DNA from: Thermodesulfobacteriota bacterium
Lineage (GTDB): Bacteria > Desulfobacterota > WTBG01 > JAGOGO01
DNA length: 32,000 nucleotides
NCBI GenBank assembly: GCA_026625185.1
Contig: CP113000.1
Location: forward strand, 390,001 to 422,000
Direction: 5' to 3'
How positions within the stretch are numbered: position 1 is the first letter of the stretch; every line of letters starts with the position of its first letter. Positions 9,738-25,603 of the stretch are shown piece by piece. The notes under the pieces are model-generated. The model was not told where the DNA came from. It did not search any database and worked only from the letters and a program-made list of their open reading frames with translations. Made by a program: the position numbers and the translations under genes.

Positions 9738-10100
9738 ATGAAAAAAAACCAAATTGTACCAGGAATATTTTTGGTATTTTTTATTATTAGTATAATTCTT
9801 GCCAAAACCTCTTATATTTTTGCAAACGAGGGGGGAAGTTCCCAACAAGCGTCATATTCGGTTGAGGTTTCCCAGGTAGATGCCCGCCCGTCATTTCCGG
9901 ACGTCCTTTGCGATCTTATTTTCATTCGCCCGGCAGGTGTGGTCGTCCTGGGAATTGGCTTGGGGGCCACAGTGGTAGCAACGCCTTTCGCACTGCCAAC
10001 TGGAACCATGAGCCAAGTATCACAGGCGCTAATTATTGACCCGTTTGATTACACCTTTGTACGACCTTTAGGAGATTGGCAGGATGGCTTGGGGGACTAA
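9738..10100 (+). CDS. Hypothetical exported or membrane protein
   Basis: 120-aa ORF with a strong RBS (taaggagattgaaatATG). N-terminal signal-like segment MKKNQIVPGIFLVFFIISIILA plus a second hydrophobic stretch. No family recognised. Confidence 0.55.
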   Translation: MKKNQIVPGIFLVFFIISIILAKTSYIFANEGGSSQQASYSVEVSQVDARPSFPDVLCDLIFIRPAGVVVLGIGLGATVVATPFALPTGTMSQVSQALIIDPFDYTFVRPLGDWQDGLGD

Positions 10101-10173
10101 GGTTAAAACCTCTGAACCTGTTGTTTTAGTAAGCCGTCCACCTGTGTAATGCCACCCGTTTAGCAAGCATTTT

Positions 10174-10470
10174 TTAGGTAAGAGATGGAGTCATGTAAAT
10201 AGGTGTGTAAAAAGAATTTAGTCGGCCAACCTTTTCGGTTTTTTTTGACTCCCTTTTCAGCACACCATCGACATACGTTTTCCCTCTGTAAACATCAGGC
10301 AACAGCCAATGACCTTTTAACGTGCTGAAGTTTTTCTTCGAAACCTGCAACATTTTCCAGATCATTGCGGTGGCTTTGTGAACTTTCTCGAAGCGCTTCG
10401 CTGCATCGGTCATCAGTCTCACTGAGCTTAAGGGGGACTCAACCACATTCGTTGCCCGAAGGTGCACCCA
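10174..10470 (-). pseudogene. IS256-family (mutator-type) transposase, C-terminal remnant only
   Basis: The ~97-aa tail RATNVVESPLSSVRLMTDAAKRFEKVHKATAMIWKMLQV...LLPDVYRGKTYVDGVLK matches the conserved TNxIES...VRxRT...W...G..Y.DGV C-terminus of IS256 transposases. The upstream ~300 aa are absent. Confidence 0.6.
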
Positions 10471-10785
10471 GTGCTACTTCGTAGTGAGTAATATCATTTT
10501 ATCTTTGAGTTGACCATATTGGCGATAAAAACTGCTTTATAATCGAATTGAGGTCATTACTTATTCGGGTTATCGAGATGCCTGACGGAACTCTTTTCAC
10601 TTTTATCCTTCCCAAAACATTTGCTTTTTTAAGGTCAATGTTTTTTGTATTTTTAACTTTAAAAAAAGTCAATCAAAACTTATCCTTACTTTTCAGGCAC
10701 CTTAATACGCCGCTTAAAGAGCATAAGATTTTCGTGCTGATTTTGATTCCTCTTTATTGCCTTACCGTATCCTGAATACTCGCGA

Positions 10786-11264
10786 AAGTTTCCACTTTCT
10801 GAAACTACTGTATATGTATTTAAAAAATCCAGGTTTTTAACCATTTCAATCCAAACTCGAAAAAAGGAAGAAAACATACTAATCGATAATCGTTTGGGTT
10901 CTATTCCCACTAAGCGAATTCCCATCAAAGCAGATAAGGTTTGGCTTAAAATTGTATTTCGAAATCTTTTCAATAATGCCATCAAATATGGCGGCAAGGG
11001 ATGTGGGGTAGCCTTTGGTTGCGAAGACTGCGGATCATACTACAAACTTAATGTTTATAATAGTGGAGCGCCGATTGCGGATGATATCTGCGAAAAACTG
11101 TTTACAAAATTTAATCGGAATGGAGTGGAGGGGAATTGCCTTCTGAAGGCATGGGCCTGGGGCTGTATCTGACCAAAAAGATCATTCAGAATCATGGCGG
11201 TGAAATAAAGTATGAACCCAAAGAAGGGGGTGCCAATTTTGTTCTAACCCTTCCGAATGAGTGA
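10786..11264 (+). pseudogene. Sensor histidine kinase remnant: HATPase_c domain only, 5'-truncated and frameshifted
   Basis: N box KADKVWLKIVFRNLFNNAIKYGG, G1 region LNVYNSGAPI and F box LFTKFNR lie in frame 1. The G2 box and end, EGMGLGLYLTKKIIQNHGGEIKYEPKEGGANFVLTLPNE*, lie in another frame (shift near 11112-11125). No HisKA or sensor part upstream. Confidence 0.7.
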
Positions 11265-11449
11265 CTATGAGGGCTTAACTTGCTAAGAATAATTTTTTTT
11301 GCCTCTTCACGCATAGCCTGAAGGGTTTTTTTATTTAAGGATAATTATTAAACAAGGTTTTAATGAAACAGTACCCCAACACAGCAATTCTATACCAAAA
11401 TCCCAACATTAAAACTGGATCGGTTTTCGGTGGGCAGGTACATTATCTT

Positions 11450-12205
11450 TTATCTTTTTATCAAGTCTTCACGATGTTGGTTATAAGCATCTCTAACCGA
11501 AACGTATGGGTCAAGGGCAGCACGCTTAAGTCCCTCATATTCCCCGATCCGCAAAGAAGTCCGATTGACTGCCGCCAATATCTCTGCTCCATAAACATAG
11601 GGAAAGCTATAATGGGTTAGAACATAAAAAGAAGGAACAATGCACCTCTCAACAAAACTTCCAATGCCGTCGCGGAGGCTGGTTGATCCAGCAAAAGGAA
11701 GAGTGAGGTAAAACCCTGGTCCCTTGTAACACCCGATGGTTTGACCAAAATCTTCATCCTTCATTTCAAGATGGAAACATTTTTTTGCCGGGTCAAACAA
11801 ACCAGCCACTCCGATGGTGGTATTAATCCCAAACCGTGATAGTTCAACCGATGCTTCTTTAAATTCACCTTGTAACCCGCAGTTAATCATGCGAACCGGT
11901 GAAAATACATTCCAAAAAAAATTTTGAACCGATAGTCGAGCGCTTCTCGGTAAAACCCATCCATATCCTTGCGCCACTGGTTTTAATACCCAAAAATAAA
12001 GTTTGTCGTTGACCTTAAAAAAAAATCGGTTAAATCGCTCGATCGGGTCAGGAATGGGTTGAACAGCTTCGGCAGTGTTTTCCAACGGTATTTCCTTACC
12101 CATCGAAGGCGTAATTACTTTGACGGTATCTGAAGCCAAAGAAAAATCGATAAAAAACATCAAAGCACAAAGGAAAACTATTATACCCGATAGATTTTTT
12201 TTCAT
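11450..12205 (-). CDS. mlaA: MlaA/VacJ-family outer-membrane lipoprotein (phospholipid asymmetry maintenance)
   Basis: DPIERFNRFFFKVNDKLYFWVLKPVAQGYGWVLPRSARLSVQNFFWNVFSPVRMINCGLQGEF...FGINTTIGVAGLFDPA is the canonical MlaA core. Start placed at MKKNLSG (12205), preceded by GGGGG; the track ORF starts at 12232. Confidence 0.9.
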   Translation of the reverse strand: MKKNLSGIIVFLCALMFFIDFSLASDTVKVITPSMGKEIPLENTAEAVQPIPDPIERFNRFFFKVNDKLYFWVLKPVAQGYGWVLPRSARLSVQNFFWNVFSPVRMINCGLQGEFKEASVELSRFGINTTIGVAGLFDPAKKCFHLEMKDEDFGQTIGCYKGPGFYLTLPFAGSTSLRDGIGSFVERCIVPSFYVLTHYSFPYVYGAEILAAVNRTSLRIGEYEGLKRAALDPYVSVRDAYNQHREDLIKR

Positions 12206-12745: not shown

Positions 12746-13243
12746 CTATCTTAAAACGCAAAAAAAAATTTGCTTTGTCACGCAGGAAGCAATATAAATA
12801 TGAACAAAAATGAAATGCTTGAATGATAGGGCTACGAAAAGACCGAATAAAAAAAAGACAAAGTAATCGAACAGCTGTCCCCACCCTTCCGTGAATTCGG
12901 TGCTGTGTGTGCTTGCGTCGCGAAAGCCTGCTTGTACCGCCAGGCCTGCGATGTAGGCTGCAATGAACATTCTCCCCCCGACAGTTTCACAGGCGAGTAC
13001 GCTGAGTACTGGTATCGCTACCAGCCCAAATTGTTGGGTGGATTCAACCATCCACTCTTTGCATCGGGCTGTGGCTAGGAGCAGACCACCAATCAGCCCC
13101 ACGAAAAGCCCCACCAACGCGCCCATCCCCAATTGTTCAAAAACAAAGTTTAGTAGGACTCGGCCGGCCCCCTCTGTGCCGATCTGGGACACTACGATTA
13201 AAAACATGAGAAAGGGGACTGAAAGCCCATCGTTTAGCCCTGC
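12746..13243 (-). pseudogene. Cation:proton antiporter (CPA1, Na+/H+ exchanger family) internal fragment
   Basis: The open frame reads AGLNDGLSVPFLMFLIVVSQ...GALVGLFVGLIGGLLL...FIAAYIAGLAV, typical central TM helices including the (E)SGLNDG motif. The N-terminal ~150 aa and the C-terminal helices are missing. Confidence 0.65.
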
Positions 13244-13299: not shown

Positions 13300-14205
13300 C
13301 TAAATTAAACGCTTCTTCCTTAACCTGATAAAAGGATTAAGGCCGGTAACCACAAACAACAGGGTTGCAGGAATCGGCAACGTAGCGGCTCCCGGGGTAA
13401 GCAACCCTCCTCCGTTCAGGCTAAAAATCCCTCCATTTAGCGCCAGCATGAGCGGACTGTTCGGATCGTAATAGAGCGTTAACCCATTGCCCCCCATAAT
13501 ATTGGTGATCTCCGAGTTGCTGATTACAAGTCCCATTATTTCATCAACATACAGTGCCCCACCCGGGATACCGTTGCCGTCAAAAAGAAAGATGCTTTGG
13601 CCGGTAATATCGAGGGTTTGCCAGGCAAAACTTTCGCTGCCGGGACCGCTATCTGCTCCCGGGAGGTAAAAATTGTGTTCACTGTCCGTACCGAAAATAA
13701 AGGCGAGCATGGCCCCATCAGTGTTCCAAAGGGGATTGGTGCCTTGGTTGATAAAGTCATTGCTGATGTTAAACACATCACCTGTTCCGCCCACAAGGTA
13801 CCCTGTCGGATCAACAATTAGGTCCGTAAAGGTCTGGGTGGCGGGGTCGCTGACGTAAGCGCCGTTGTTGGTAAACGTACCGGTATACGTAGCAGCGGTT
13901 CCGGTGACCTTCCAGGCGCCGTTGTTTTCCACGCTGCCGTTGACGACCCGGGTTCCGGCCCCACTCAGTGTCGTGGTGCCGGTGGCATTATTGACGATAT
14001 TGGATAAGCGGCAAAACCCTCTTTCTTTTGCTTGGGAATTTTTCTTCTTTGCTGGCTCAGGAAAATCTACCGGCCTTATCAAAAAGGTTTCCCCATCGGT
14101 AGGTTCAATTATCACCAACACTCCAGGCGGTAAGACGCTCGGCCTTGAGTGTTTACCCACCCAAGAGTTGACCAGCCACCCCTTCCCTCCCTTAGTGCTT
14201 TTCAT
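13300..14205 (-). CDS. PEP-CTERM-type (variant PIP-CTERM) surface protein with a Gly/Thr/Asn-rich beta-repeat body and an aberrant N-terminus
   Basis: The C-terminus ATLPIPATLLFVVTGLNPFIRLRKKRLI has the PEP-like motif, a TM helix and a basic tail, as in exosortase sorting signals. The body is NNATGTTTLSGAGTRVVNGSVENNGAWKVTGTAATYTGTFTNNGAY. The first ~65 aa have no signal peptide. Confidence 0.6.
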   Translation of the reverse strand: MKSTKGGKGWLVNSWVGKHSRPSVLPPGVLVIIEPTDGETFLIRPVDFPEPAKKKNSQAKERGFCRLSNIVNNATGTTTLSGAGTRVVNGSVENNGAWKVTGTAATYTGTFTNNGAYVSDPATQTFTDLIVDPTGYLVGGTGDVFNISNDFINQGTNPLWNTDGAMLAFIFGTDSEHNFYLPGADSGPGSESFAWQTLDITGQSIFLFDGNGIPGGALYVDEIMGLVISNSEITNIMGGNGLTLYYDPNSPLMLALNGGIFSLNGGGLLTPGAATLPIPATLLFVVTGLNPFIRLRKKRLI

Positions 14206-14255
14206 GAATCGTTTAAATAGAATCTGAGAGGAAAAACTTAGTAAAAAACAATTAA

Positions 14256-14276
14256 AGGGTAGTTATAGGGTAGTTA
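14256..14276. repeat. Tandem agggtagtta x2 (period 11) in the upstream region of the PEP-CTERM gene
   Basis: Read directly. The GGGTAGT core also occurs in a hairpin at 673-698. Confidence 0.5.
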
Positions 14277-14326
14277 AGCAGGAAATAGGAAACTGACCAT
14301 TTCTGTTAACCATCTGAAATCATTAA

Positions 14327-14368
14327 TGCGCCCAGGGCGACTCGAACGCCCAATCTACGGATTCGTAG
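14327..14368 (-). pseudogene. tRNA-Arg(ACG) 3' fragment, anticodon loop to discriminator; att-site-type remnant
   Basis: The minus strand reads CTACGAA (loop, anticodon ACG after U33), TCCGT, AGATT, GGGCG-TTCGAGT-CGCCC (T arm), TGGGCGC (acceptor 3' strand), A. The 5' anticodon-stem partner and the 5' acceptor strand GCGCCCA are absent, so the tRNA is not intact. Confidence 0.7.
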
Positions 14369-14393
14369 TCGCAACTAATGGGGTTCTAAGTTT

Positions 14394-14480
14394 TTAAGTT
14401 TGTTTGGAACTGATTAAGTTTGTTTGGGGAAATTAGCTTCCGGGAATGATTCATTTTTAGTCTGTTTTGGTCTGTTTTGG
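14394..14480 (+). repeat. Cluster of four direct repeats: ttaagtttgtttgg x2 (14394, 14414) and tctgttttgg x2 (14461, 14471)
   Basis: Read directly. All copies share the core TGTTT(T)GG in one orientation and lie 25-110 bp from the tRNA fragment. Confidence 0.7.
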
Positions 14481-14745
14481 ACTGTCTACTTGACAAAAAC
14501 CTTACAATTTGACTCTTGAGAGGTTAAGGCATTTTTTTTAAACCCCGTCTAATACCATTTTTGCACAGCTTTTTTTACCACCCTTAGGATAAACTCCTAC
14601 CTCTGGGAATTTTTCCTCAAAAAATGAGGTAATTCCCCTATAGACATGAAGTAAAATTCTTATTATTAAAAATAGAAAAACAGGACATTTTATCAGTAGG
14701 TTTCTAAAGGCCATGGGAAAAAAGATAAAAAAGGGGGAAAAAGAA

Positions 14746-15162
14746 CTACGCCGGAAAGATTTTGTAAAAAAAATGGCGTACGTGGCTCCAGCTATTGAAA
14801 TACTGGTTATCCCCAAATATACCTCTGCCCAAACCACAAGCTGTCCTTCGAGCTCTGGGCCCTCCTGTCGCAAACATAAATAGACTAACAGGACAATTAA
14901 CTGCCTTCCATTGCCTCCTCATCCCCCAAACCCTTATCGAGAAATCGGTAGGGGTTTTTATTCCCTGAAAATAAAGGCCTTGCCCTTCTTTGATGGGAAT
15001 ACCCAGATAATCGGCGATCTCTTTTCTGAAAATGGAAAACGTGGCCCCGGAATCAACTAAGGCTTTGACCTTCAGGCTCCCTTTGGGTCCGTTTAGCTCG
15101 ATGTCCACCATGGGATAGGACAGGTCTCCTTTTTTAAGATACGGGAATTCTTTCTCCATCAT
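14746..15162 (-). CDS. Retropepsin-like (clan AA) aspartic protease
   Basis: 138-aa ORF with the catalytic motif KALVDSGATFSI (D-S-G-A) at the usual distance from the N-terminus. A possible LLGR-type flap/C-terminal motif is CGLGRGIFGDNQYF. ATGA overlap with the upstream DUF5678 gene. The C-terminal third is less convincing. Confidence 0.7.
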   Translation of the reverse strand: MMEKEFPYLKKGDLSYPMVDIELNGPKGSLKVKALVDSGATFSIFRKEIADYLGIPIKEGQGLYFQGIKTPTDFSIRVWGMRRQWKAVNCPVSLFMFATGGPRARRTACGLGRGIFGDNQYFNSWSHVRHFFYKIFPA

Positions 15163-15362
15163 ATATACGGGCCTTCGCTTTTCCTGGGGATCAGGAGCAC
15201 TGAAGGCTTGTTTTTAAGGTTTTTAACTTTCTTCATCAGTTTTTTGAGAGTCCCCTGATGAGCTACGACCTTTCCATGGGCAAATGCCACCCACTCACCC
15301 GCATATTGGCCCAGCGAAACCGTCTTATGATTGGTTTTAATCGCAATCTTTGGTTTTTCCAT
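15159..15362 (-). CDS. DUF5678-like small protein
   Basis: The 67-aa sequence LGQYAGEWVAFAHGKVVAHQGTLKKLMKKVKNLKNKPSVLLIPRK fits the DUF5678 pattern (y.gkWVAi.dgkVva.g..l.el....p.i..vP). Confidence 0.6.
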   Translation of the reverse strand: MEKPKIAIKTNHKTVSLGQYAGEWVAFAHGKVVAHQGTLKKLMKKVKNLKNKPSVLLIPRKSEGPYI

Positions 15363-15861
15363 ATTTGTTATATTTAGTGATTATCATCCCTAACCCCACC
15401 GCATCGAACATGTTCTGGTGGAATTCTTCTTTCCAGGCCCGATCCTGAGTCAGGTAAACTTTAAGCTCCGGATATTTGGCCACCACCATCCGGGCCACTT
15501 CCTTTTTGCTCGCGTGGCCGTTGCCACAGATTATTTTTTTCATGGTGCTCGGGGCAAAGCTTACCACTCTAATCCCCTTCCTTCTTCCGATGGCCCTTAT
15601 CTCATCCACCAGGACATTTAAAAGGGAGGAATTCCGGTTATTGAAGAAAAAGGTCTTTTCCACCACCAGGATTTGAGGCCTAAAGCCATTGATCAATTTC
15701 AACACGATCTTTCTTCCCGTCCAGAGGATGTCATGGGGTGATCTCCGGTTTTAAATCACCTTAACCCCGGCATAAATAAGGGCACTGTTATCGAGGAACG
15801 CTACCCCCATGTGTCGGGTGCCGGGATCAATGGCCAGGATTTTTAATTTGTTTTTGAACAT
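15337..15861 (-). pseudogene. RuvC-like Holliday-junction resolvase with catalytic residues present, interrupted by one in-frame TAA
   Basis: Own translation from ATG 15861: MFKNKLKILAIDPGTRHMGVAFLDNSALIYAGVKVI*NRRSPHDILWTGRKIVLKLINGFRPQILVVEKTFF...KKIICGNGHASKKEV...FDAVGLGMI. The stop is at 15753-15751. The D (DPG), E (VVEK) and D (FDAV) positions are conserved. Confidence 0.75.
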
Positions 15862-15913
15862 GGATTTTGGGGTGGATGGGGAAGGGAGATCACTCCCCTC
15901 CCGCACAGAGTGA

Positions 15914-16411
15914 TTAATTATCTAAGCGATTGAAACAGACGACGCCTAAGGCAATTGCCTCAAACATCCTGACAAAGTAGGAGTTCTTGTTTTTCTTTTC
16001 CTTGCTTAATTCGTTGACCAGGAAGGGATAGCGGGAAACAACTGCTTCTTGAAGCTCCCTTTTATTCTTTATGCTTTTCTCTATGGAGAGAAACTTCTCC
16101 AGATCTTTCATGGGAAACTCAAATACCTTAAGTCTCTTTTGTTTTGAAAATTCCTTTAATCTGGTCGCCAATCGGTTCAAATTCTGAGAGCTCCGGGAAG
16201 GATGGAGTTTCTTGATGGCTAGGATATTGGGTTCGTAGCGGGCAATAAGATCGGAAAGAATGGCTTTAGTCTTTTTAAGCTTTTCTTTGAATTCCCTTCC
16301 CTCGATAACTTTTATTCTCAAATCTTTTAGTTCCGGACCTTGAAAGAAAGCTACACCTACGTATCGTGTTCCCGGATTAATTCCCAGGATCTTGGGAGAT
16401 TTCTTATGCAT
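15914..16411 (-). CDS. RuvC-like paralog with substituted catalytic residues
   Basis: 165-aa ORF: KILGINPGTRYVGVAF (Asn replaces the first catalytic Asp), ILAIKKLH (Lys replaces the Glu), MFEAIALGV (Glu at the last acidic position). Its ATG overlaps the upstream Rep-like stop by 8 nt. Confidence 0.75.
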   Translation of the reverse strand: MHKKSPKILGINPGTRYVGVAFFQGPELKDLRIKVIEGREFKEKLKKTKAILSDLIARYEPNILAIKKLHPSRSSQNLNRLATRLKEFSKQKRLKVFEFPMKDLEKFLSIEKSIKNKRELQEAVVSRYPFLVNELSKEKKNKNSYFVRMFEAIALGVVCFNRLDN

Positions 16412-17090
16412 ATTTTTGGATGAGATGATTGAACAATGCGCCTCGGCTTTTCTTTATTTTTTTATCGGGTATCTGCTTTACTTCTGATAGTACTCTTCTT
16501 AAAAGAGGCTCGGGAAACTTGTTGGAATACGAGATATATAATCCCAGCCCTTTGGGGTCTTTTAATGCTTCGGCTAATTCTAAGGCAAGGTACTCTGTTC
16601 TGGTTTTTGGTTTAAATTCTTTAAAAGAATTAAAAGTCGAATGAAAAAATTTTTTATTATCGATATCGTTTTTTAAAAAAGCTTTTTTTATCATTATATC
16701 GTTAGGAGAAAAACTCGCCTTTGATTCCTGGCTTGCTATAAAGGAATTTCGGCTCTCCGAGAACTTCTCTAAAGTATGATTTTTGATTCTTCTAAAGTAT
16801 GATTTTTGATACTTCTGAAGTTCCATATTTGGAGCACCTGGCAAGGCTTTCCATTTTTTTATCTGGATGGAGAGGTATCTTCCAGTGTTCTTAGTGGAGA
16901 TATAGTCATGCTTTTTAAGTAAACTTAACCACCGTAAGATCATTCCCCTTCTTAAGCACATATCCCGGCTTAGGGTTTTGATTTTTCTTAACAGATGTCC
17001 ATCTTCCCTGCTTGCATGAAGCAAAAGGTAGAGAAAAAGCCAGATGGCATTTTTCATCCTCCGGTAATGTTTGGCTTCCTGATCAACCAC
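16404..17090 (-). CDS. wHTH protein, putative replication or initiator-like protein of the element
   Basis: 228-aa ORF. The N-terminal segment AIWLFLYLLLHASREDGHLLRKIKTLSRDMCLRRGMILRWLSLLKKHDYI is winged-helix-like. The C-terminal segment LALELAEALKDPKGLGLYISYSNKFPEPLLRRVLSEVKQIPDKKIKKSRGALFNHLIQKY resembles tails seen on plasmid and phage replication-associated proteins. Function is inferred only. Confidence 0.55.
   Translation of the reverse strand: MVDQEAKHYRRMKNAIWLFLYLLLHASREDGHLLRKIKTLSRDMCLRRGMILRWLSLLKKHDYISTKNTGRYLSIQIKKWKALPGAPNMELQKYQKSYFRRIKNHTLEKFSESRNSFIASQESKASFSPNDIMIKKAFLKNDIDNKKFFHSTFNSFKEFKPKTRTEYLALELAEALKDPKGLGLYISYSNKFPEPLLRRVLSEVKQIPDKKIKKSRGALFNHLIQKYA
16765..16810. 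repeat. 23-bp tandem duplication inside the Rep-like ORF
   Basis: tctaaagtatgatttttgat is perfect at 16768-16787 and 16791-16810. The period is 23, not a multiple of 3, so the two copies are read in different frames (YQKSYFR versus IKNHTLE). Confidence 0.8.
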
Positions 17091-17153
17091 CAGTCCTTTC
17101 CAGACCGGTGTCCACCAATCTTTTTAGCTATTTGTAGTATTGGTCATAGCCCG

Positions 17154-17441
17154 TCATGCTCTTATTTTTCCTTCATGCCCGTTTTTAGTTTTTAAGCTTT
17201 CTTCTCTCATTCTGATCTCTCTTTTTAATTGCCCATAAAGTTCTCGAAATAAAAAAGCCACCGGTGTGCGGTAGACAATTTCAAGTTTTAAGGCATTAAT
17301 CAATCCGGGAAGTTTGACTCCGTGCTCATAACGAGAGAGGTTATTTGTCTTTTTCCAACCCATAAAATAGGCGGCGCTCTTTTGGGAGTGTCCCAGTTTC
17401 TTCCGGTAGGTCCTGGTAGAATCAACTTCAAAGTGCACCAT
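17154..17441 (-). CDS. XRE/Cro-CI-family helix-turn-helix transcriptional regulator
   Basis: The 95-aa sequence YRKKLGHSQKSAAYFMGWKKTNNLSRYEHGVKLPGLINALKLEIVY shows the HTH_3 pattern (lglSq...A..lG.....s.yE.G...P). It is the first gene of the minus-strand module. Confidence 0.75.
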   Translation of the reverse strand: MVHFEVDSTRTYRKKLGHSQKSAAYFMGWKKTNNLSRYEHGVKLPGLINALKLEIVYRTPVAFLFRELYGQLKREIRMREESLKTKNGHEGKIRA

Positions 17442-17480
17442 TTGAGAAAAGCATGCGACATGACAGGAATTCTGGTATGT

Positions 17481-18560
17481 TGAGAAGAACGACCAACTCG
17501 CAACCAGAAAGAGCCTGCCATGTCATATATACATTTAACAGAAAACGAACGATATGTCATCAGCCATTTAAATGTGGCTGGATTTAGTAAACGAGAAATT
17601 GCCCGCCGGATAAACCGAGATCACAGCACGGTCAGTCGTGAACTTAAACGCAACGGGCCGGAATATGATTGCACTGTTTATTGGTATGACTGGACGCATC
17701 CGGTAGCTCTAAAACGACGGCATCAGGCCAGGCATTATCGTCGGGAGGGCAACGAGCGCCTTGTTGATTATGTAAAAACAAAACTGAATCTGCAATGGTC
17801 TCCAGAGGAGATAAGCGATTATATGCGGATTAATTATCCTGATGATGAGACGATGCGAGTGTGCCATGAGACAATTTATCGCTGGATTTATAAGGATGCG
17901 AAGGTTAATGGCAAGCTTTATCTAAACCTGCGGCGGGGGAGGAAAAGGCGACGGCGCCAGAAACGGTATGGTTTGGGAAGGCGGTTTCTTGCCGGGCGCA
18001 AGAGAATTGCTCAACGACCTGAAATCGTGGAAGGGAGAAAACGATTTGGAGACTGGGAGGGCGATACGATCGAAGGCAAAAAAAGCAGTGGCTATATCGC
18101 GACGTTAGTCGAACGCAAGAGCCGCTACCTTTTGGCTGGCAAGCTGGAAAATAAGAAAGCTACGACATTGACAGATAAAAGCACTCAAATTTTCAGGCGC
18201 ATTCCTGGAATAATGCGGCAAACTTTAACGGTAGATAATGGAACAGAGTTTGCCCAATTTAAAGAACTTGAGGAAAAAACCAAACTCAGTATTTACTTTG
18301 CCGATCCTTATGCTGCATGGCAGCGAGGAGCCAATGAAAACACCAACGGATTACTGCGGCAGTATTTTCCGAAAGGAACTTACATGAGAAAAATTACCGA
18401 ACGTGATATTTCTCGTGCTGTTAAAAGGCTTAATAATCGGCCAAGAAAATCTCTCAACTACCGGACACCCTATGAAGTGTTCTGGAATGCAGCTCGTGGT
18501 GCACTTGCAATTTGAATTCACCCCAGAGATCATTTTTAATTGAGTTCCAACCTCTTCTCA
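17481..18560 (+). mobile_element. IS30-family insertion sequence (boundaries tentative)
   Basis: Imperfect terminal inverted repeats: TGAGAAGA-N6-AACTC at 17481 and its complement ending at 18560. The 1080-bp length is typical of IS30. No convincing target duplication was seen. Confidence 0.5.
17520..18515 (+). CDS. IS30-family DDE transposase, apparently intact
   Basis: 331-aa ORF. N-terminal HTH: LTENERYVISHLNVAGFSKREIARRINRDHSTVSRELKRNG. DDE region: GDWEGDTI, LTVDNGTEFA, ANENTNGLLRQYFPKG. Confidence 0.92.
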   Translation: MSYIHLTENERYVISHLNVAGFSKREIARRINRDHSTVSRELKRNGPEYDCTVYWYDWTHPVALKRRHQARHYRREGNERLVDYVKTKLNLQWSPEEISDYMRINYPDDETMRVCHETIYRWIYKDAKVNGKLYLNLRRGRKRRRRQKRYGLGRRFLAGRKRIAQRPEIVEGRKRFGDWEGDTIEGKKSSGYIATLVERKSRYLLAGKLENKKATTLTDKSTQIFRRIPGIMRQTLTVDNGTEFAQFKELEEKTKLSIYFADPYAAWQRGANENTNGLLRQYFPKGTYMRKITERDISRAVKRLNNRPRKSLNYRTPYEVFWNAARGALAI

Positions 18561-19344: not shown

Positions 19345-20975
19345 ATGTCCCACTATCTCATTTACTGCCGTAGGTCTTCAGAGTCGGAAGAGCGGCAGAT
19401 TCTTTCCATTGAATCCCAAGAAAAAGAATTAAAAGAACTGGCCAAAAGACTAAAACTGGATATTTCTGAAATCCTCACTGAGTCCCAGTCCGCCAAATAT
19501 CCGGGGAGACCGGTTTTTAACAACCCAATGAAACAGGTTTATAAAGGCCAGGTAAAAGGGATTATCAGCTGGAAACTGGATCGTTTGGCACGCAACCCGA
19601 TTGACGGATCCGCCCTGATCTGGGCCTTGGACCGCGGGAAGATTTCTGAAATCATCACTCCTCATAACACCTTTTTAAACAACAGCAACGACAAGTTCCT
19701 CATGCAGCTTGAATTCGGAATGGCCAAAAAGTACGTGGACGATTTGAGTGATAATGTCAAGCGGGGAAACCGGACCAAGCTAGAGAATGGCTGGATTCCC
19801 GGGATTCCGCCTTTGGGGTATCTCAATGAGCCCAAAGAAAGAACCATAATAAAGGACCCGGAAAGATTCGCGTTGGTGAGGAGAATGTGGGATCTCCTGC
19901 TGCAAGGTACAGCGCCATCAAGAATCCAAAAAATGGCCACTAACGAATGGGGGCTTCGAACCAGGGTCCATAAAAAAACCGGGGGCCAACCTTTAAGTAT
20001 AAATAGTCTATACAAGATCTTTGGCACCCCTTTCTACTACGGGCTAATTAAACGAAAAGAGGGCGTGTTTAAGGGAAAACATGAACCTATGATTAATGAG
20101 GAGGAATTCTGGAAAGCTCAGGAAATCCTCGGAAGGAAAGGAAGACCACGGCCAAGAAAACACCAGTTTGCCTTTACCGGACTTATCCGCTGTAGTGAAT
20201 GCGGATCCATGGTCACTGCCGAGGAAAAAGATAACCAGTACGGCTCCCATTACATCTAATATAGGTGCACAAAAAAGAAAAAAAATTACCGCTGCCGTCA
20301 ACCGTACATCAATCTTGATGACTTAGAGACCCAAATTTCAACCTACCTTACTAAGATCCATGTCCCGGAGAGATTGCTCAAGTTTGCTCTCGACTACCTG
20401 AAAGAAGGAGAAAAGGAAGAGCAAGAGAAACACCATGATATTGAGAGATCTTTGAGAAAAGCCCTCGGTGACTGCCAAAAGAAAATTGAGAACCTGAACC
20501 AGATGAGAATGAGAGAACTCATTGATGATGGGGAATACCTTACGGAAAAGAAAAAACTTCTTGAAGAAAAAATCAGGCTTGAGGATAGCGTAAAAAGTGG
20601 AAGCCAAAAGGGAGAAAAGGCTATTCAGCTTACCGAAGAAATGTTTATGTTTGCGAGCCAGGCTAAGGAACGCTTTCAAAATGGGTCTTTGGAGGACAAG
20701 CGGTCAATCCTTCTGGGACTTGGCTCGAACTTTTTTCTAAAGAACAAAAAACTCTTTATCCAAACGGAAAACCCTTCCTCATCCTGGAGGAAGGATTGAA
20801 TAAGATTAATGGTGGAATGACCAGGCTCGAATTTACGAAAAATGCCTTATCAGAAAAGAAAAATGAACTATCTTTACCTTCATTTCAACACTTGTGGACC
20901 CTAGTGGAGGACGTTCGAACTTTTTACAAAACTACAAAATCAGCTTGCTACCTACCGGAACTGGAACGGTATTGA
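19345..20975 (+). pseudogene. Large serine recombinase with one in-frame TAA and one frameshift
   Basis: Resolvase catalytic N-terminus YCRRSSESEERQILSIESQ; recombinase domain; zinc ribbon LIRCSECGSMV...GSHYI*YRCTKKK, with TAA at 20257-20259 where Tyr is expected. The coiled-coil continues in the same frame to 20799. The tail KPFLILEEGL...ELERY* is in the -1 frame (shift in the gaaaa run near 20766-20772). Confidence 0.85.
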
Positions 20976-21119: not shown

Positions 21120-21893
21120 CTAACCTCTTCCATTTTCTCCCCACCTCCGGCACGGAGCTTCATACTCGCAATCCTTACAGAGGAAGCTTGACCGGGGGAA
21201 GAAAATCCCTGACCGGATGCCGCGGAGCACCTGACTGGCAAGGTGAAAGAAGCGCTGGTAATCAGCCCTGGTTCTCGTGGTCTCAAACATGATCATTTTT
21301 GGCTTTTTGGTCTTTACAAACTCAATGAGCTTGAGAAGTTTTGGCGGCCTTTGGTAAAGCATCTCGTAGGCGTAGCTATAAATCGTAAGCTGGAGATGGT
21401 CATGAACCTCCCGTGCATCCATGGTCTGGCCGGAGGTCTTAAATTCCGCGATAATCTCATCTTTTTCCACCGCATCAAAGAATCCTTCCAGATTTATCCC
21501 CAGGCTCTCCTTTTTGGCAGGATTGATAAGAGGAATGTTAAAGTGAACATCCGTTGCTTTTACATTTTTTAGGGGATCCTCAAAATAGCGAGCGAGCATT
21601 TCCTTGCCCATAACCGTGACCTTCATTTCATCCTCGCCTTCTTTGAAGCGAAGCTCGGCATCCACCTTCTGGCTGTACCAATCAGCCCGGAAGATCCGAA
21701 AAAGCTTATCCAGGGTGACTCCGTTTCCGTTCATCTTTTGTTTGTGAAACCAGGAGATGCTGGAATGGATGGCCCCGCCCAAGGCCAAGCCTGAACCCTT
21801 AAAAGGTTTGGGGATTAGATCAATGTACTGAAATTTATATTTCAAACTGCACTGGAGATAAAGGTTTATCTGGCTGTTAGAAAGGTGCTCCAT
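21120..21893 (-). CDS. PD-(D/E)XK nuclease, Cas4/RecB-exonuclease-like, with a 4-Cys cluster
   Basis: SNSQINLYLQCSLKYKFQYI (N-terminal Cys), GFFDAVEKDEIIAEFKTSG (D...E.K), QLTIYSYAY (QxxxY), and C-terminal CKDCEYEAPC. Start placed at MEHLSNS, preceded by AAGGAGGTGAGG; the track ORF starts at 21932. Confidence 0.8.
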   Translation of the reverse strand: MEHLSNSQINLYLQCSLKYKFQYIDLIPKPFKGSGLALGGAIHSSISWFHKQKMNGNGVTLDKLFRIFRADWYSQKVDAELRFKEGEDEMKVTVMGKEMLARYFEDPLKNVKATDVHFNIPLINPAKKESLGINLEGFFDAVEKDEIIAEFKTSGQTMDAREVHDHLQLTIYSYAYEMLYQRPPKLLKLIEFVKTKKPKMIMFETTRTRADYQRFFHLASQVLRGIRSGIFFPRSSFLCKDCEYEAPCRRWGENGRG

Positions 21894-21942
21894 CTTCCTC
21901 ACCTCCTTTGGCTTCCGCCAGCAGGCGTTCAATCACCTTGAT

Positions 21943-22572
21943 ATGCTCTACTGCTCCTTGAATGAACTGCAAGCCCATGAAGCTGAGTTTGAGGATTGTT
22001 TTCTTTCGGAAACCGAGATGAATTTAAAAGTAAAGAGTCTTCAGCTTCGAGACTTTGTCCGGCATAAAGACGACCGGATCATCGGCGGGCTCCTGCTCAC
22101 CAATTCGGAAACCGGGCACCGGGCCTTGCGGGTGGAACCGCGTGTATTTCGGGTCCGGTGCACCAACGGGATGGTGATTGAGGAGTTTTTGACCCGGCAG
22201 ATCCATCTTGGCAATGGCAATGATGAAGGCGATGAGATGGTTTATTTATCCATCCGGCGTTCCATCAAAGAGCTTTTCGGAAGATTCGGAGAAATCATTG
22301 AGATCTTGCGGGAGACCACTGAAATCAAGGTCAAAAACGCAACCAAAGTGATTAACAATGTGGTGGAGCACTACCGCCTGAGCGAAACCCAGAAAGAAAA
22401 CATCCTCATTGCTTTTGGGGCGGAGCCGGAAGAGGACAAATACGGGATTGCTAACGCCGTAACCCAAGCCGCCCAAAGAGAGGAAACTTGGGAAAAAAGC
22501 CTTGAGCTTGAGCGGATCGGCGGGAAGCTCGTTACCCTCTCCCCGGAAACCTTCAAAACCTGGGATGAGTAA
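21943..22572 (+). CDS. DUF932-family protein (phage/plasmid-associated), probably N-terminally short or truncated
   Basis: GGLLLTNSETGHRALRVEPRVFRVRCTNGMV...QIHLG matches the DUF932 core (NS.DGs.a......fR..C.NG.v...H.g). Only ~55 aa precede the core, which is less than I would expect for this family. Confidence 0.65.
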   Translation: MLYCSLNELQAHEAEFEDCFLSETEMNLKVKSLQLRDFVRHKDDRIIGGLLLTNSETGHRALRVEPRVFRVRCTNGMVIEEFLTRQIHLGNGNDEGDEMVYLSIRRSIKELFGRFGEIIEILRETTEIKVKNATKVINNVVEHYRLSETQKENILIAFGAEPEEDKYGIANAVTQAAQREETWEKSLELERIGGKLVTLSPETFKTWDE

Positions 22573-22588
22573 AAGAAATGAGAACGAA

Positions 22589-22879
22589 ATGAAAATCGCG
22601 ATAAAAAGAAAAGTATTGTTGGAAGGTTTTGAAATTGCCAAGGACTCAGTGGGAAAACAAACCGCTTTGCCGGTTCTTAAAAATGTCAAACTGAAAGCCC
22701 GGGGCGGAGTCCTTGAACTTTTTACCACCAATCTTTCCATTGGGACCATGATTTCGCTTAAAGATTTAGCTATCGCCTGCGAGGGTGAGGCCTTATGCGA
22801 CGCAATAAAGTTTATGGCCATCGTGAGGGAACTTCCGGAAAATGACGTGAAGATCGAGACCGAAAAAAAGGCCACCTGA
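22589..22879 (+). CDS. dnaN: DNA polymerase III beta sliding clamp, domain-I part (0-frame product)
   Basis: MKIAIKRKVLLEGFEIAKDSVGKQTALPVLKNVKLKARGGVLELFTTNLSIG... has the DnaN N-terminal pattern. It ends at TGA 22877-22879, two codons after the A7 run. An alternative start at 22565 overlaps the DUF932 stop. Confidence 0.8.
   Translation: MKIAIKRKVLLEGFEIAKDSVGKQTALPVLKNVKLKARGGVLELFTTNLSIGTMISLKDLAIACEGEALCDAIKFMAIVRELPENDVKIETEKKAT
22864..22870 (+). promoter_or_regulatory. A_AAA_AAG heptamer in the 0 frame: candidate -1 ribosomal frameshift site, or a homopolymer indel
   Basis: The 0-frame codons are gaA AAA AAG gcc acc TGA. A -1 slip reads GGC CAC CTG ATG GTA..., which restores a continuous clamp (..IETEKKGHLMVKCEKSHFKL..). 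Confidence 0.4.
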
Positions 22880-23757
22880 TGGTAAAATGCGAGAAATCTC
22901 ATTTCAAGCTCATGACCATGCAACCGGAAGAATTTCCCTGCCCGCCAACGGTTCCGGAACAGGATTTTTTCCCTGTCGGAGAACAATTCTTTCAGTATCT
23001 AAGTAAAGTCAAATACGCTGCTTCAAAGGATGAGCTAAGGCATAACCTCAATGGCGTCTTTCTGGGAGCAGAGGTAGTGGCCACCGACGGTCACCGGATG
23101 GCAATAATCAAGAAAAGTCTGGGGTTTATGGATGTTCTCGTTCCTCTGGATTTTATCAGCCTTATTTTGAAACTCAAAAGCAGAGATGAGAGGAACACCT
23201 TTCAAGCCGGGTGTTCCAACAACTTGATTATCATCCGGTCCCATGGCCTCACTTTGTTTAGCCGATTGATTGATGCGGAGTTTCCCGATTACTCCCAGGC
23301 GATCCCTGATGATCCTTCCCGATACGCCCTAATGGCAAGAAAGGACTTAATGCAGGCCCTAAAAAGGATCATGCTCATGAGCGGAAAAGAGTGCGCGGTG
23401 AAGTTCGAATTTAACCCCGGATCCCTCGTTCTTTCGTCCTTTACTCCTAACCTGGGAAACGCCTCGGAAAAAATGGAGATTGAATACCGGTCAGAGAGTT
23501 ATGAGACTTCTTTTACTGTCGGCCTTAACGGAAAGTTCCTACTGGATATGCTGGAGGCCTTGGATGAAGATCAGGTCAAGCTTCAGATGATAAACGATGA
23601 ATCGCCCTTAATGATCGAAGAGCATGGTTCCCTTCACATCCTTATGCCCCTTCATCTCTTGGAAGCTGAACCCGAGGCTCAGTCTGAAACTGAAATTGAA
23701 CTTGCCACTGAATCCGAGTCAGAACCGGAGTTTGTTGAAGAGAAGGAAGCAGCTTAA
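22879..23757 (+). CDS. dnaN: DNA polymerase III beta sliding clamp, domains I(end)-II-III with an acidic C-terminal tail
   Basis: The 292-aa sequence KSHFKLMTMQPEEFP, LNGVFLGAEVVATDGHRMA, RLIDAEFPDYSQAIP and SPLMIEEHGSLHILMPL matches DnaN throughout. The extra tail is EAEPEAQSETEIELATESESEPEFVEEKEAA. Confidence 0.85.
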   Translation: MVKCEKSHFKLMTMQPEEFPCPPTVPEQDFFPVGEQFFQYLSKVKYAASKDELRHNLNGVFLGAEVVATDGHRMAIIKKSLGFMDVLVPLDFISLILKLKSRDERNTFQAGCSNNLIIIRSHGLTLFSRLIDAEFPDYSQAIPDDPSRYALMARKDLMQALKRIMLMSGKECAVKFEFNPGSLVLSSFTPNLGNASEKMEIEYRSESYETSFTVGLNGKFLLDMLEALDEDQVKLQMINDESPLMIEEHGSLHILMPLHLLEAEPEAQSETEIELATESESEPEFVEEKEAA

Positions 23758-23785
23758 ATGTTTAATAGTTCTTTTGAAAAAAATT

Positions 23786-23814
23786 AGGAGATGTTAGTTG
23801 ACATCTCCTTTTTC
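23786..23814 (+). terminator. Rho-independent terminator after the clamp gene (possibly bidirectional)
   Basis: Perfect 9-bp stem AGGAGATGT / ACATCTCCT, 6-nt loop, then TTTTT. An A-run precedes it, so it could also serve the convergent hepT gene. Confidence 0.7.
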
Positions 23815-23928
23815 AGCTGTTCTTTATTCGCTCCGGGTTTATATCACGTCCTCCTCAAGAGGCAGCCTGGAAGTGAGCGGTGCGGCTGCAGGGTTCCAAA
23901 AAATCCCAAAATTATTCCCCCCGTCCGG

Positions 23929-24294
23929 TCAACTGTCGTGTTGGCATTTTCCGGTTGCCTCAAGGAGCGTCTGGAGTTTCGCACGAAGATCAGGCAGCTT
24001 AGTTGTTGCAACATCCCAGACGATGGTGTAATCAACTCCAAAATAATCATGGATAAGCCTATCGCGCATTCCAGTGAGCTTACGCCACTCGATATCCGAT
24101 TGCATCCTCTTGACATCTTCTGGTAGTTTTTTTGAAGCTTCGCCGATAATCTCAAGGCTTCGAACAAATGCCCTCTTTAGCGACGGATTCCTGACAAAGG
24201 AACCATAATCCATACCCGATATTTGGGTTAAGATGTAGTCAATCTCGTCCAGGATGTGATGGATGCATTCATGCGGCGATAGGAACACGTTCAA
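23929..24294 (-). CDS. hepT: HepT-like (DUF86) RNase toxin
   Basis: 121-aa ORF with the Rx4HxY motif in GMRDRLIHDYFGVD. It overlaps the upstream MNT gene by 26 nt. Confidence 0.9.
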   Translation of the reverse strand: MNVFLSPHECIHHILDEIDYILTQISGMDYGSFVRNPSLKRAFVRSLEIIGEASKKLPEDVKRMQSDIEWRKLTGMRDRLIHDYFGVDYTIVWDVATTKLPDLRAKLQTLLEATGKCQHDS

Positions 24295-24586
24295 CCTCTC
24301 TGAGAATATGTGGACCGATGTATGGACTGAGAGCCTCTAACGTAATCAATTCGACTTTGCGCCCTAGGAGTTCTTCAAGTAGAAATGCGACTTCCATAAA
24401 ATTGTCGAAGGTGTGCTTTTCAGGCATGAATTCCACCAGAACATCAATGTCACTCAAGGGCGTCTGGTCACCTCGAACAAATGAACCGAACAATCCAATA
24501 TTTTTAACACCATAGAATGCAAGTTGTTTTTGGTTCTCTAAAATGCGCTGAAATATTAACTCTTTAGTGTTAGTTTTTTTGACCAT
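24269..24586 (-). CDS. mntA: MNT-type nucleotidyltransferase antitoxin
   Basis: 105-aa ORF with GLFGSFVRGDQTPLSDIDVLVEF (the GSxxRG...DxD polymerase-beta-fold NTase motif). Confidence 0.9.
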   Translation of the reverse strand: MVKKTNTKELIFQRILENQKQLAFYGVKNIGLFGSFVRGDQTPLSDIDVLVEFMPEKHTFDNFMEVAFLLEELLGRKVELITLEALSPYIGPHILREVERVPIAA

Positions 24587-24775: not shown

Positions 24776-25603
24776 TTATATGTTAAATTCCTTGCCATCC
24801 GCTACTACCCTTACATTTGCAAAATGATCAAGAAACTGGAGAGGGTGGAAGCTATGAATAGGAATTGTCATTTTGGGCGACAATTTATTCACGAATTCCT
24901 TTAAATCACTGAGGAGAGCATGACCGCTGGTATGCAGATACTCGTAACGTACTCCTTGCTCCTGGAGAAAAGATTTCAATTTCCGTAATGATTGACTACG
25001 TTCAAAGTATCCGGGCCACATGGAATAGATCCATGTTGCTCGGCTTAAATCAATAAAACGTTTGAGCTCCGGCATGAATCCGGGACGAACAAGCATTGCT
25101 ACCTTATCCCTTTTTTCATTGATACGTGTCCATTTTATCCTGTTTTTGCGGTGATGGGTGAGGACATCATCCCAGCCTTGTTTTTCAAACTGATGAGCCA
25201 AAAGTTGTGGATAGCATACCCTTATTCTTGGCCAGGTAACGTTGGGCAACCTACCGTATTCTTTTAGTATCTCTAATATTTCTGCTGTGTAAAAATCAAT
25301 GATGAACATACGGTCACAACGTTTGGCGGCTTTAAAAATAGTTACTAAACGATCGATGTTCTGACTGGAAGTTGTCACCAAAACAATTCCCTGAGTCTTC
25401 TCTATAATTTTTGCGAATTTATCTTCAAGCTCGGATTCACTGGGCTGCATTTCGTCACTTCGGTTGCCAATAAGTGTACCTTCCATGAGTAGGGCATCAA
25501 CATGAGGAAGCGACTCGGGGAGTTGAGAAAGCAGTTTTGATTTACGCCCGTGCCCGCGGAAGTCACCGGTATAAAATATGTTTTTTCCACCAGCCTTTAA
25601 CAG
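24776..25603 (-). pseudogene. MBL-fold metallo-hydrolase, 5'-truncated (HxHxDH region missing)
   Basis: The in-frame open region starts LLKAGGKNIFYTGDFRGHGRKSKLLSQLPESLPHVDALLMEGTLIG and continues to YEYLHTSGHALLSDLKEFVNKLSPKMTIPIHS. A stop lies at 25604-25606 and there is no upstream metal-binding motif. Confidence 0.7.

Follow-up and report, generated by a model that had tools for sequence, protein, structure and literature searches.

The window analysed here (32,000 nt; positions 390,001 to 422,000 of contig CP113000.1 from a Thermodesulfobacteriota bacterium) contains a gene for a DnaN-like beta sliding clamp that is divided between two reading frames and preceded by a shortened DUF932 gene. 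The locus consists of the following features:

21943..22572, + strand: DUF932 gene, 5'-truncated, 209 aa as opposed to 327 aa in relatives, all of which share homology with it from ~21932 onwards
22589..22879, + strand: 0-frame ORF, 96-aa stub of DnaN domain I (NCBI hypothetical protein WAC07995.1)
22846..22876, + strand: stretch of 10 codons open in the -1 frame, between the -1-frame stop TGA at 22843 and the 0-frame stop
22863..22871, + strand: A7G2 tract, site of the 1-nt deletion (A run 22863-22869, GG 22870-22871)
22864..22870, + strand: A_AAA_AAG heptamer in the 0 frame, fully matching the X_XXY_YYZ pattern
22879..23757, + strand: downstream ORF in the -1 frame, 292 aa (NCBI WAC07996.1, "DNA polymerase III subunit beta")
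23786..23809, + strand: inverted repeat with a 9-pair stem, directly past the clamp stop codon

The stub starts with ATG at 22589 and comprises clamp residues 1-94, after which Ala-Thr and the stop codon TGA (22877-22879), two codons past the heptamer, interrupt the clamp. Its 0-frame end reads ..ATC GAG ACC GAA AAA AAG GCC ACC TGA, with GAA at 22862, and the A7 run within it is the longest mononucleotide run of the gene. The 292-aa ORF, whose ATG at 22879 overlaps the stub's TGA as TGATG, supplies what is left of domain I together with domains II and III, and has an acidic tail. A -1 shift anywhere within 22846-22876 would lead to a full-length product; a slip at the heptamer, or one extra A in the mRNA on the A7 run, restores the native ..EKKGHL... 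The trans-frame peptide predicted from a -1 slip is ..IETEKKGHLMVK.., and the 0-frame alternative ends in IETEKKAT. The string AAAAAAG is not rare, with 38 occurrences in the window when both strands are counted. The inverted repeat past the clamp was terminator-like in our scan on the - strand only; TTTTTC follows it on the + strand.

Joining the two ORFs by a -1 shift yields a conceptual protein of 389 aa, with no further stops across the 389 codons. Pfam detects the three DnaN domains in it (PF00712, 1.7e-26; PF02767, 2e-11; PF02768, 1.2e-19), and only in this conceptual fusion do the three DNA_pol3_beta domains lie in one chain. The fusion aligns without a gap at the junction both to 24 family members and to solved clamps (best PDB profile match 7rzm_A, E 1e-58), and the junction residues G95-H96-L97 are near-invariant in the family alignment. 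The AF2 model of the fusion is a three-domain clamp (pLDDT 81, pTM 0.77) with a disordered stretch formed by the last 30 acidic residues; the junction falls in a loop (residues 92-96), at the beta-hairpin turn between strands 86-91 and 97-101. The anatomy given in a preliminary description, made from the letters of the window alone, is thereby borne out: the gene is split exactly at A_AAA_AAG 22864-22870, a -1 shift restores a 389-aa clamp that aligns gap-free to DnaN, the unshifted product is a domain-I stub of 96 aa that stops two codons later, and the downstream ORF overlaps that stop as TGATG.

Searches for the family turned up many proteins that are encoded by a single ORF, have 384-398 aa and are 56-83% identical. 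Among 5.8 billion protein sequences there was neither a protein identical to the fused product, the best matches being 79-83% identical, nor an intact allele of the window lineage. In a scan of genome contigs, the relatives among the matches listed were 26-34% identical, none of them close. A metagenome search with a junction-centred family alignment yielded 18 loci. At the DNA level, split ORFs were found in none of 16 homologues, and the heptamer was present in three of them, each a single ORF. These three (L001, L002 and L114) are the closest intact homologues, with 80-86% nucleotide identity, and read GAA AAA AAG GGC CAC CTG ATG GTG in one ORF, where the heptamer forms ordinary E-K-K codons. 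Their junction tract is A7G3 as opposed to A7G2 in the window, the A run being equal and the G run one shorter, which is the difference expected of a simple indel. The remaining 13 homologues lack the heptamer and read GAx GAA AAx GGx; they comprise an intact paralogue on L113 (GAA GAA AAG GGA) and 12 more distant homologues, all single ORFs, seven of which read GAT GAA AAR GGY. L114 was considered as a second frameshifted clamp on account of its 314-aa gene call and was rejected, as tblastn gives one intact frame over residues 1-372 and the database call starts too late owing to an overlapping ORF; at this locus (1763-2932) the clamp is intact and the DUF932 gene is wholly absent.

Since the window has GG where intact relatives have GGG, the split is a 1-nt deletion. 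By parsimony, the lost base would most simply be a G of GGG; the same end sequence could also have come about if AAG had first changed synonymously to AAA and the resulting A8 had then lost an A (A8GG to A7GG). The preliminary description had expected a simple error or mutation to show in reads or homologues as a single continuous ORF with a 6-A or 9-A tract; the continuous ORFs were found, but the tract is A7 followed by GGG.

In relatives, the clamp gene follows a DUF932 gene (327 aa) after a 15-nt spacer. The module on L001, L109, L111 and L113 consists of small ORFs, DUF932 and a DnaN-like clamp with an acidic, disordered C-terminal tail of ~30 aa and, as judged from these sequences, DUF932 plus clamp is a conserved module on integrated elements of Thermodesulfobacteriota. 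PADLOC gave no defence-system match for the clamp or DUF932, and a literature search returned no paper linking DUF932 with a sliding clamp. The window retains a 1.9-kb remnant of the module (~21932-23857), with homology to relatives ending at 23801-23857. Its DUF932 gene is without the first ~116 codons, and the breakpoint is the same in comparison with L001, L002 and L113. An apparent upstream extension of DUF932 homology to 21871 in tblastn was discarded as gap-ridden noise, the real start being at ..HLDMLYCS...

An intact DUF932 and clamp pair is present in the same 3.3-Mb genome, encoding WAC06769.1 (DUF932, 327 aa) and WAC06770.1 (clamp, 389 aa, 78% identical). By their NCBI accessions, this pair and the split copy (WAC07994-96) lie on a contig of the same length, 3,300,546 bp, and the DNA of the intact pair was read from L113 (JGI 3300040744, 10001-12170) via the DUF932 neighbour P0259. 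On its flanks, the intact pair has genes for IS transposases and for polysaccharide synthesis. With an intact copy elsewhere in the genome, the deletion would have inactivated a redundant gene.

The surroundings of the split clamp contain the following genes and gene fragments:

12746-13207, - strand: Na+/H+ exchanger fragment, 153 aa (profile positions 166-301 of 375)
14746-15162, - strand: retropepsin-like ORF
15914-16411, - strand: RuvC-like ORF, weak match
16404-17090, - strand: DnaD-like loader
17520-18515, + strand: IS30-family transposase
19345..20975, + strand: large serine integrase pseudogene with two lesions
21120..21893, - strand: PD-(D/E)XK (Cas4-like) nuclease gene, adjoining the truncated DUF932 gene
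23929-24586, - strand: HepT toxin / MNT nucleotidyltransferase antitoxin pair, directly downstream of the clamp remnant
24776-25486, - strand: 236-aa ORF with an RMMBL C-terminal motif only, apparent gene fragment

Lesions are found in the neighbours of the clamp as well, namely the 5' deletion of DUF932 and two changes in the integrase gene. In the latter, an in-frame TAA at 20257-20259 stands where the zinc-ribbon motif (..HYxYYRC..) has a conserved Tyr. Near 20765-20778 (GAAAACCC) the frame changes by one base, so that the final ~60 residues are encoded in a different frame; intact integrase homologues have 535-545 aa and 74% identity. The element on L111 encodes a PD-(D/E)XK nuclease, a TrwB/TraG-type coupling protein and a serine recombinase, and its nuclease homologue (51% identity) lies ~7.3 kb from the DUF932-clamp pair, with the coupling-protein gene in between. 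As the DUF932 breakpoint in the window abuts the nuclease gene, which is 7.3 kb away in L111, an internal deletion of ~7 kb is suggested. The fragments at 12746-13207 and 24776-25486 may be the borders of the inserted island. The region 13300-18515 carries cargo of phage or ICE type. On one contig from sample 3300015266 (L007), two adjacent substitutions at 2680-2681 (window 21485-21486) split the PD-(D/E)XK gene into calls of 116 aa and 136 aa, which may reflect further decay at the strain level or an assembly error; this contig has 8 differences in total, none within the clamp.

Apart from the frameshift, the clamp gene resembles a gene under selection. Pairwise dN/dS against intact relatives is 0.13-0.15, and the window-specific branch carries 38 synonymous and 24 non-synonymous changes (omega ~0.18), similar to intact relatives. 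Six departures occur at positions conserved to at least 90%; they are mostly conservative and within the range of intact members. Neither relaxed selection nor secondary lesions such as extra stops were detected in the gene. A healthy remainder implies that the lesion is very recent or that the gene is still in use.

Five samples, namely four JGI metagenomes and GCA_029216075.1, contain the split allele with identical 96-aa and 292-aa products, on 8 contigs or more; over 8-19 kb these contigs match the window at 99.9-100% identity. Judged by this identity of at least 99.9%, the split copies are one strain sampled repeatedly, and the lesion is reproducible, not evolutionarily conserved. All five samples read A7G2 at the consensus level, without the tract-length polymorphism that would mark phase variation. 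Sample 3300015266 also assembled the intact A7G3 copies L001, L002 and L114, and sample 3300040744 the intact L113 with GGG at the junction; with intact GGG copies assembled in the very samples that contain the split allele, a platform-specific homopolymer error is unlikely. The more general possibility that the break is a sequencing or assembly error and the actual gene intact could draw on the position of the site in a homopolymer tract and on the fact that one source is a single 3.3-Mb contig, maybe from long reads. It is exceedingly improbable given that the allele recurs across samples, short-contig assemblies included, that the A7G3 copies were assembled correctly beside it, and that a homopolymer error does not account for the TAA in the integrase gene nearby. 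The preliminary description had named indel mutation and sequencing error together as causes to be expected at a 7-A homopolymer; the indel is real, the error is not, and the A run is as long as in the nearest intact homologues. That description had also likened the site to the programmed -1 frameshifts of dnaX and IS transposases. An evolved signal of the dnaX/IS3 type would set a fixed ratio of 96-aa stub to full-length clamp, and such a signal would look like the site where the ORFs overlap, with its perfect 0-frame X_XXY_YYZ heptamer and the 0-frame stop two codons beyond. The stimulators that would accompany it are absent: in agreement with the preliminary description, there is no SD-like GGAG/AGGA/GAGG core in 22835-22863, and the downstream hairpin is weak, the 3' RNA folding within the range of shuffled sequences (MFE -12.1 kcal/mol for 60 nt and -6.3 kcal/mol for 40 nt; z -1.15 and -0.6). 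Downstream RNA of intact homologues folds similarly, and the sequence there is plain coding (CEKSHF). There are no tRNA genes within the window; the tRNA-Lys repertoire affects how shift-prone AAG is. In E. coli dnaX, an SD-like element precedes the heptamer and a stem-loop follows it; the site is conserved, and both products are functional. The clamp gene shares with dnaX the identical 0-frame heptamer, described there in its E. coli context (PMC5389563), and membership in the replisome family set, but it has neither stimulators nor conservation, and its 0-frame product is a domain fragment that ends at the beta-hairpin turn of the model. A AAA AAG itself is present in 68 E. coli genes (PMC9307594). 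Conservation of the heptamer together with a two-frame arrangement, which the preliminary description had proposed to look for in homologous clamps, was not seen in any of the 16 homologues, and the intact genes that have the heptamer use it as plain codons. This comparison largely refutes a programmed frameshift, which, in a decaying element, we consider very unlikely.

Slippage could matter without being programmed. Like Thermus dnaX with its A9 run, Shigella mxiE and IS elements, the split clamp would have its ORFs fused by an extra A on the run; unlike in these transcriptional-slippage genes, where one would expect a run of at least ~9 nt to be conserved along with the split of the ORFs, the A run is just 7 nt and the split is not conserved. 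Transcriptional slippage becomes evident at ~9-nt runs in many genomes (PMC1088944). In E. coli, spontaneous -1 events suppress single-bp deletions at an aggregate 1-10% (PMC10861913), and together the two values suggest a low level of full-length clamp. It is nevertheless conceivable that -1 slippage or +1A transcriptional slippage supplies a trickle of full-length clamp that is of consequence to the cell, in which case the deletion would have been tolerated or favoured and expression of the element-borne clamp turned down. Such leaky decoding is consistent with the exact restoration of the native sequence, near-invariant G-H-L included, with the absence of secondary lesions at an omega of ~0.18, with the suppression measured in E. 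coli, and with the recognised class of "savior indel plus low-level frameshifting" (PMC5009743). We consider it unlikely, since a genome that also carries an intact paralogue has no need of it, the partner DUF932 and the integrase are broken too, and A7 is below the run length of evident transcriptional slippage. It is quite improbable that the deletion was kept because unprogrammed slippage gives a small, regulated amount of mobile-element clamp; if so, the locus would be a natural savior indel with compensatory frameshifting in a processivity factor, caught early in the evolution of a programmed site. The resemblance to savior-indel and non-programmed suppression cases lies in a 1-nt deletion beside a shift-prone run at which slippage regenerates the native protein (PMC5009743, PMC10861913), and the difference in the intact copy that the split clamp has in its genome. 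A two-piece clamp, assembled non-covalently from separate 96-aa and 292-aa chains after termination-reinitiation at TGATG, would fit the stop/start overlap, preceded at 7-8 nt by a weak AAAGG, and a break that the model places in the loop 92-96 between strands 86-91 and 97-101. Both pieces, however, lack the near-invariant G95-H96-L97, no homologue has this organisation, and the context is decaying, which makes this arrangement extremely unlikely.

We therefore regard the split clamp as most probably a young frameshift pseudogene: a dnaN paralogue carried by a mobile element, redundant and situated in an eroding island, that was recently inactivated by the loss of one base. In the proposed course of events, a 1-nt deletion in A7G3 (GGG to GG) would have struck the mobile-element paralogue. 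Standard decoding would then end in the 96-aa stub, restart at TGATG would possibly yield a 292-aa fragment without the near-invariant G-H-L, and full-length clamp would arise solely through unprogrammed, low-level -1 slippage at the heptamer or an extra transcribed A. Clamp function would presumably be lost, and slippage would presumably be inefficient. The coincidence of lesion and heptamer would follow from the fact that runs slippery for the ribosome are slippery for DNA polymerase as well; A7, as the longest run of the gene, is an expected hotspot of replication slippage. Frameshift pseudogenes at homopolymers are of an ordinary kind. Like those in decaying prophages, ICEs and islands, the clamp gene has a single-base indel in its longest homopolymer tract, an intact paralogue and intact orthologues, and neighbours with nonsense, frameshift and deletion lesions. 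It differs from them in the youth of its lesion, in the lack of a signature of relaxed selection, and in the exact restoration of the frame by a -1 slip.

For annotation, this means that WAC07995.1 and WAC07996.1 are halves of one disrupted paralogue, to be marked as a pseudogene and not as a case of recoding. More generally, finding a perfect slippery heptamer where an ORF breaks off is by itself weak evidence for frameshifting, and it is the intact relatives that decide. Of minor interest is the module of DUF932 and an acidic-tailed DnaN-like clamp that is carried on integrated elements of Thermodesulfobacteriota.
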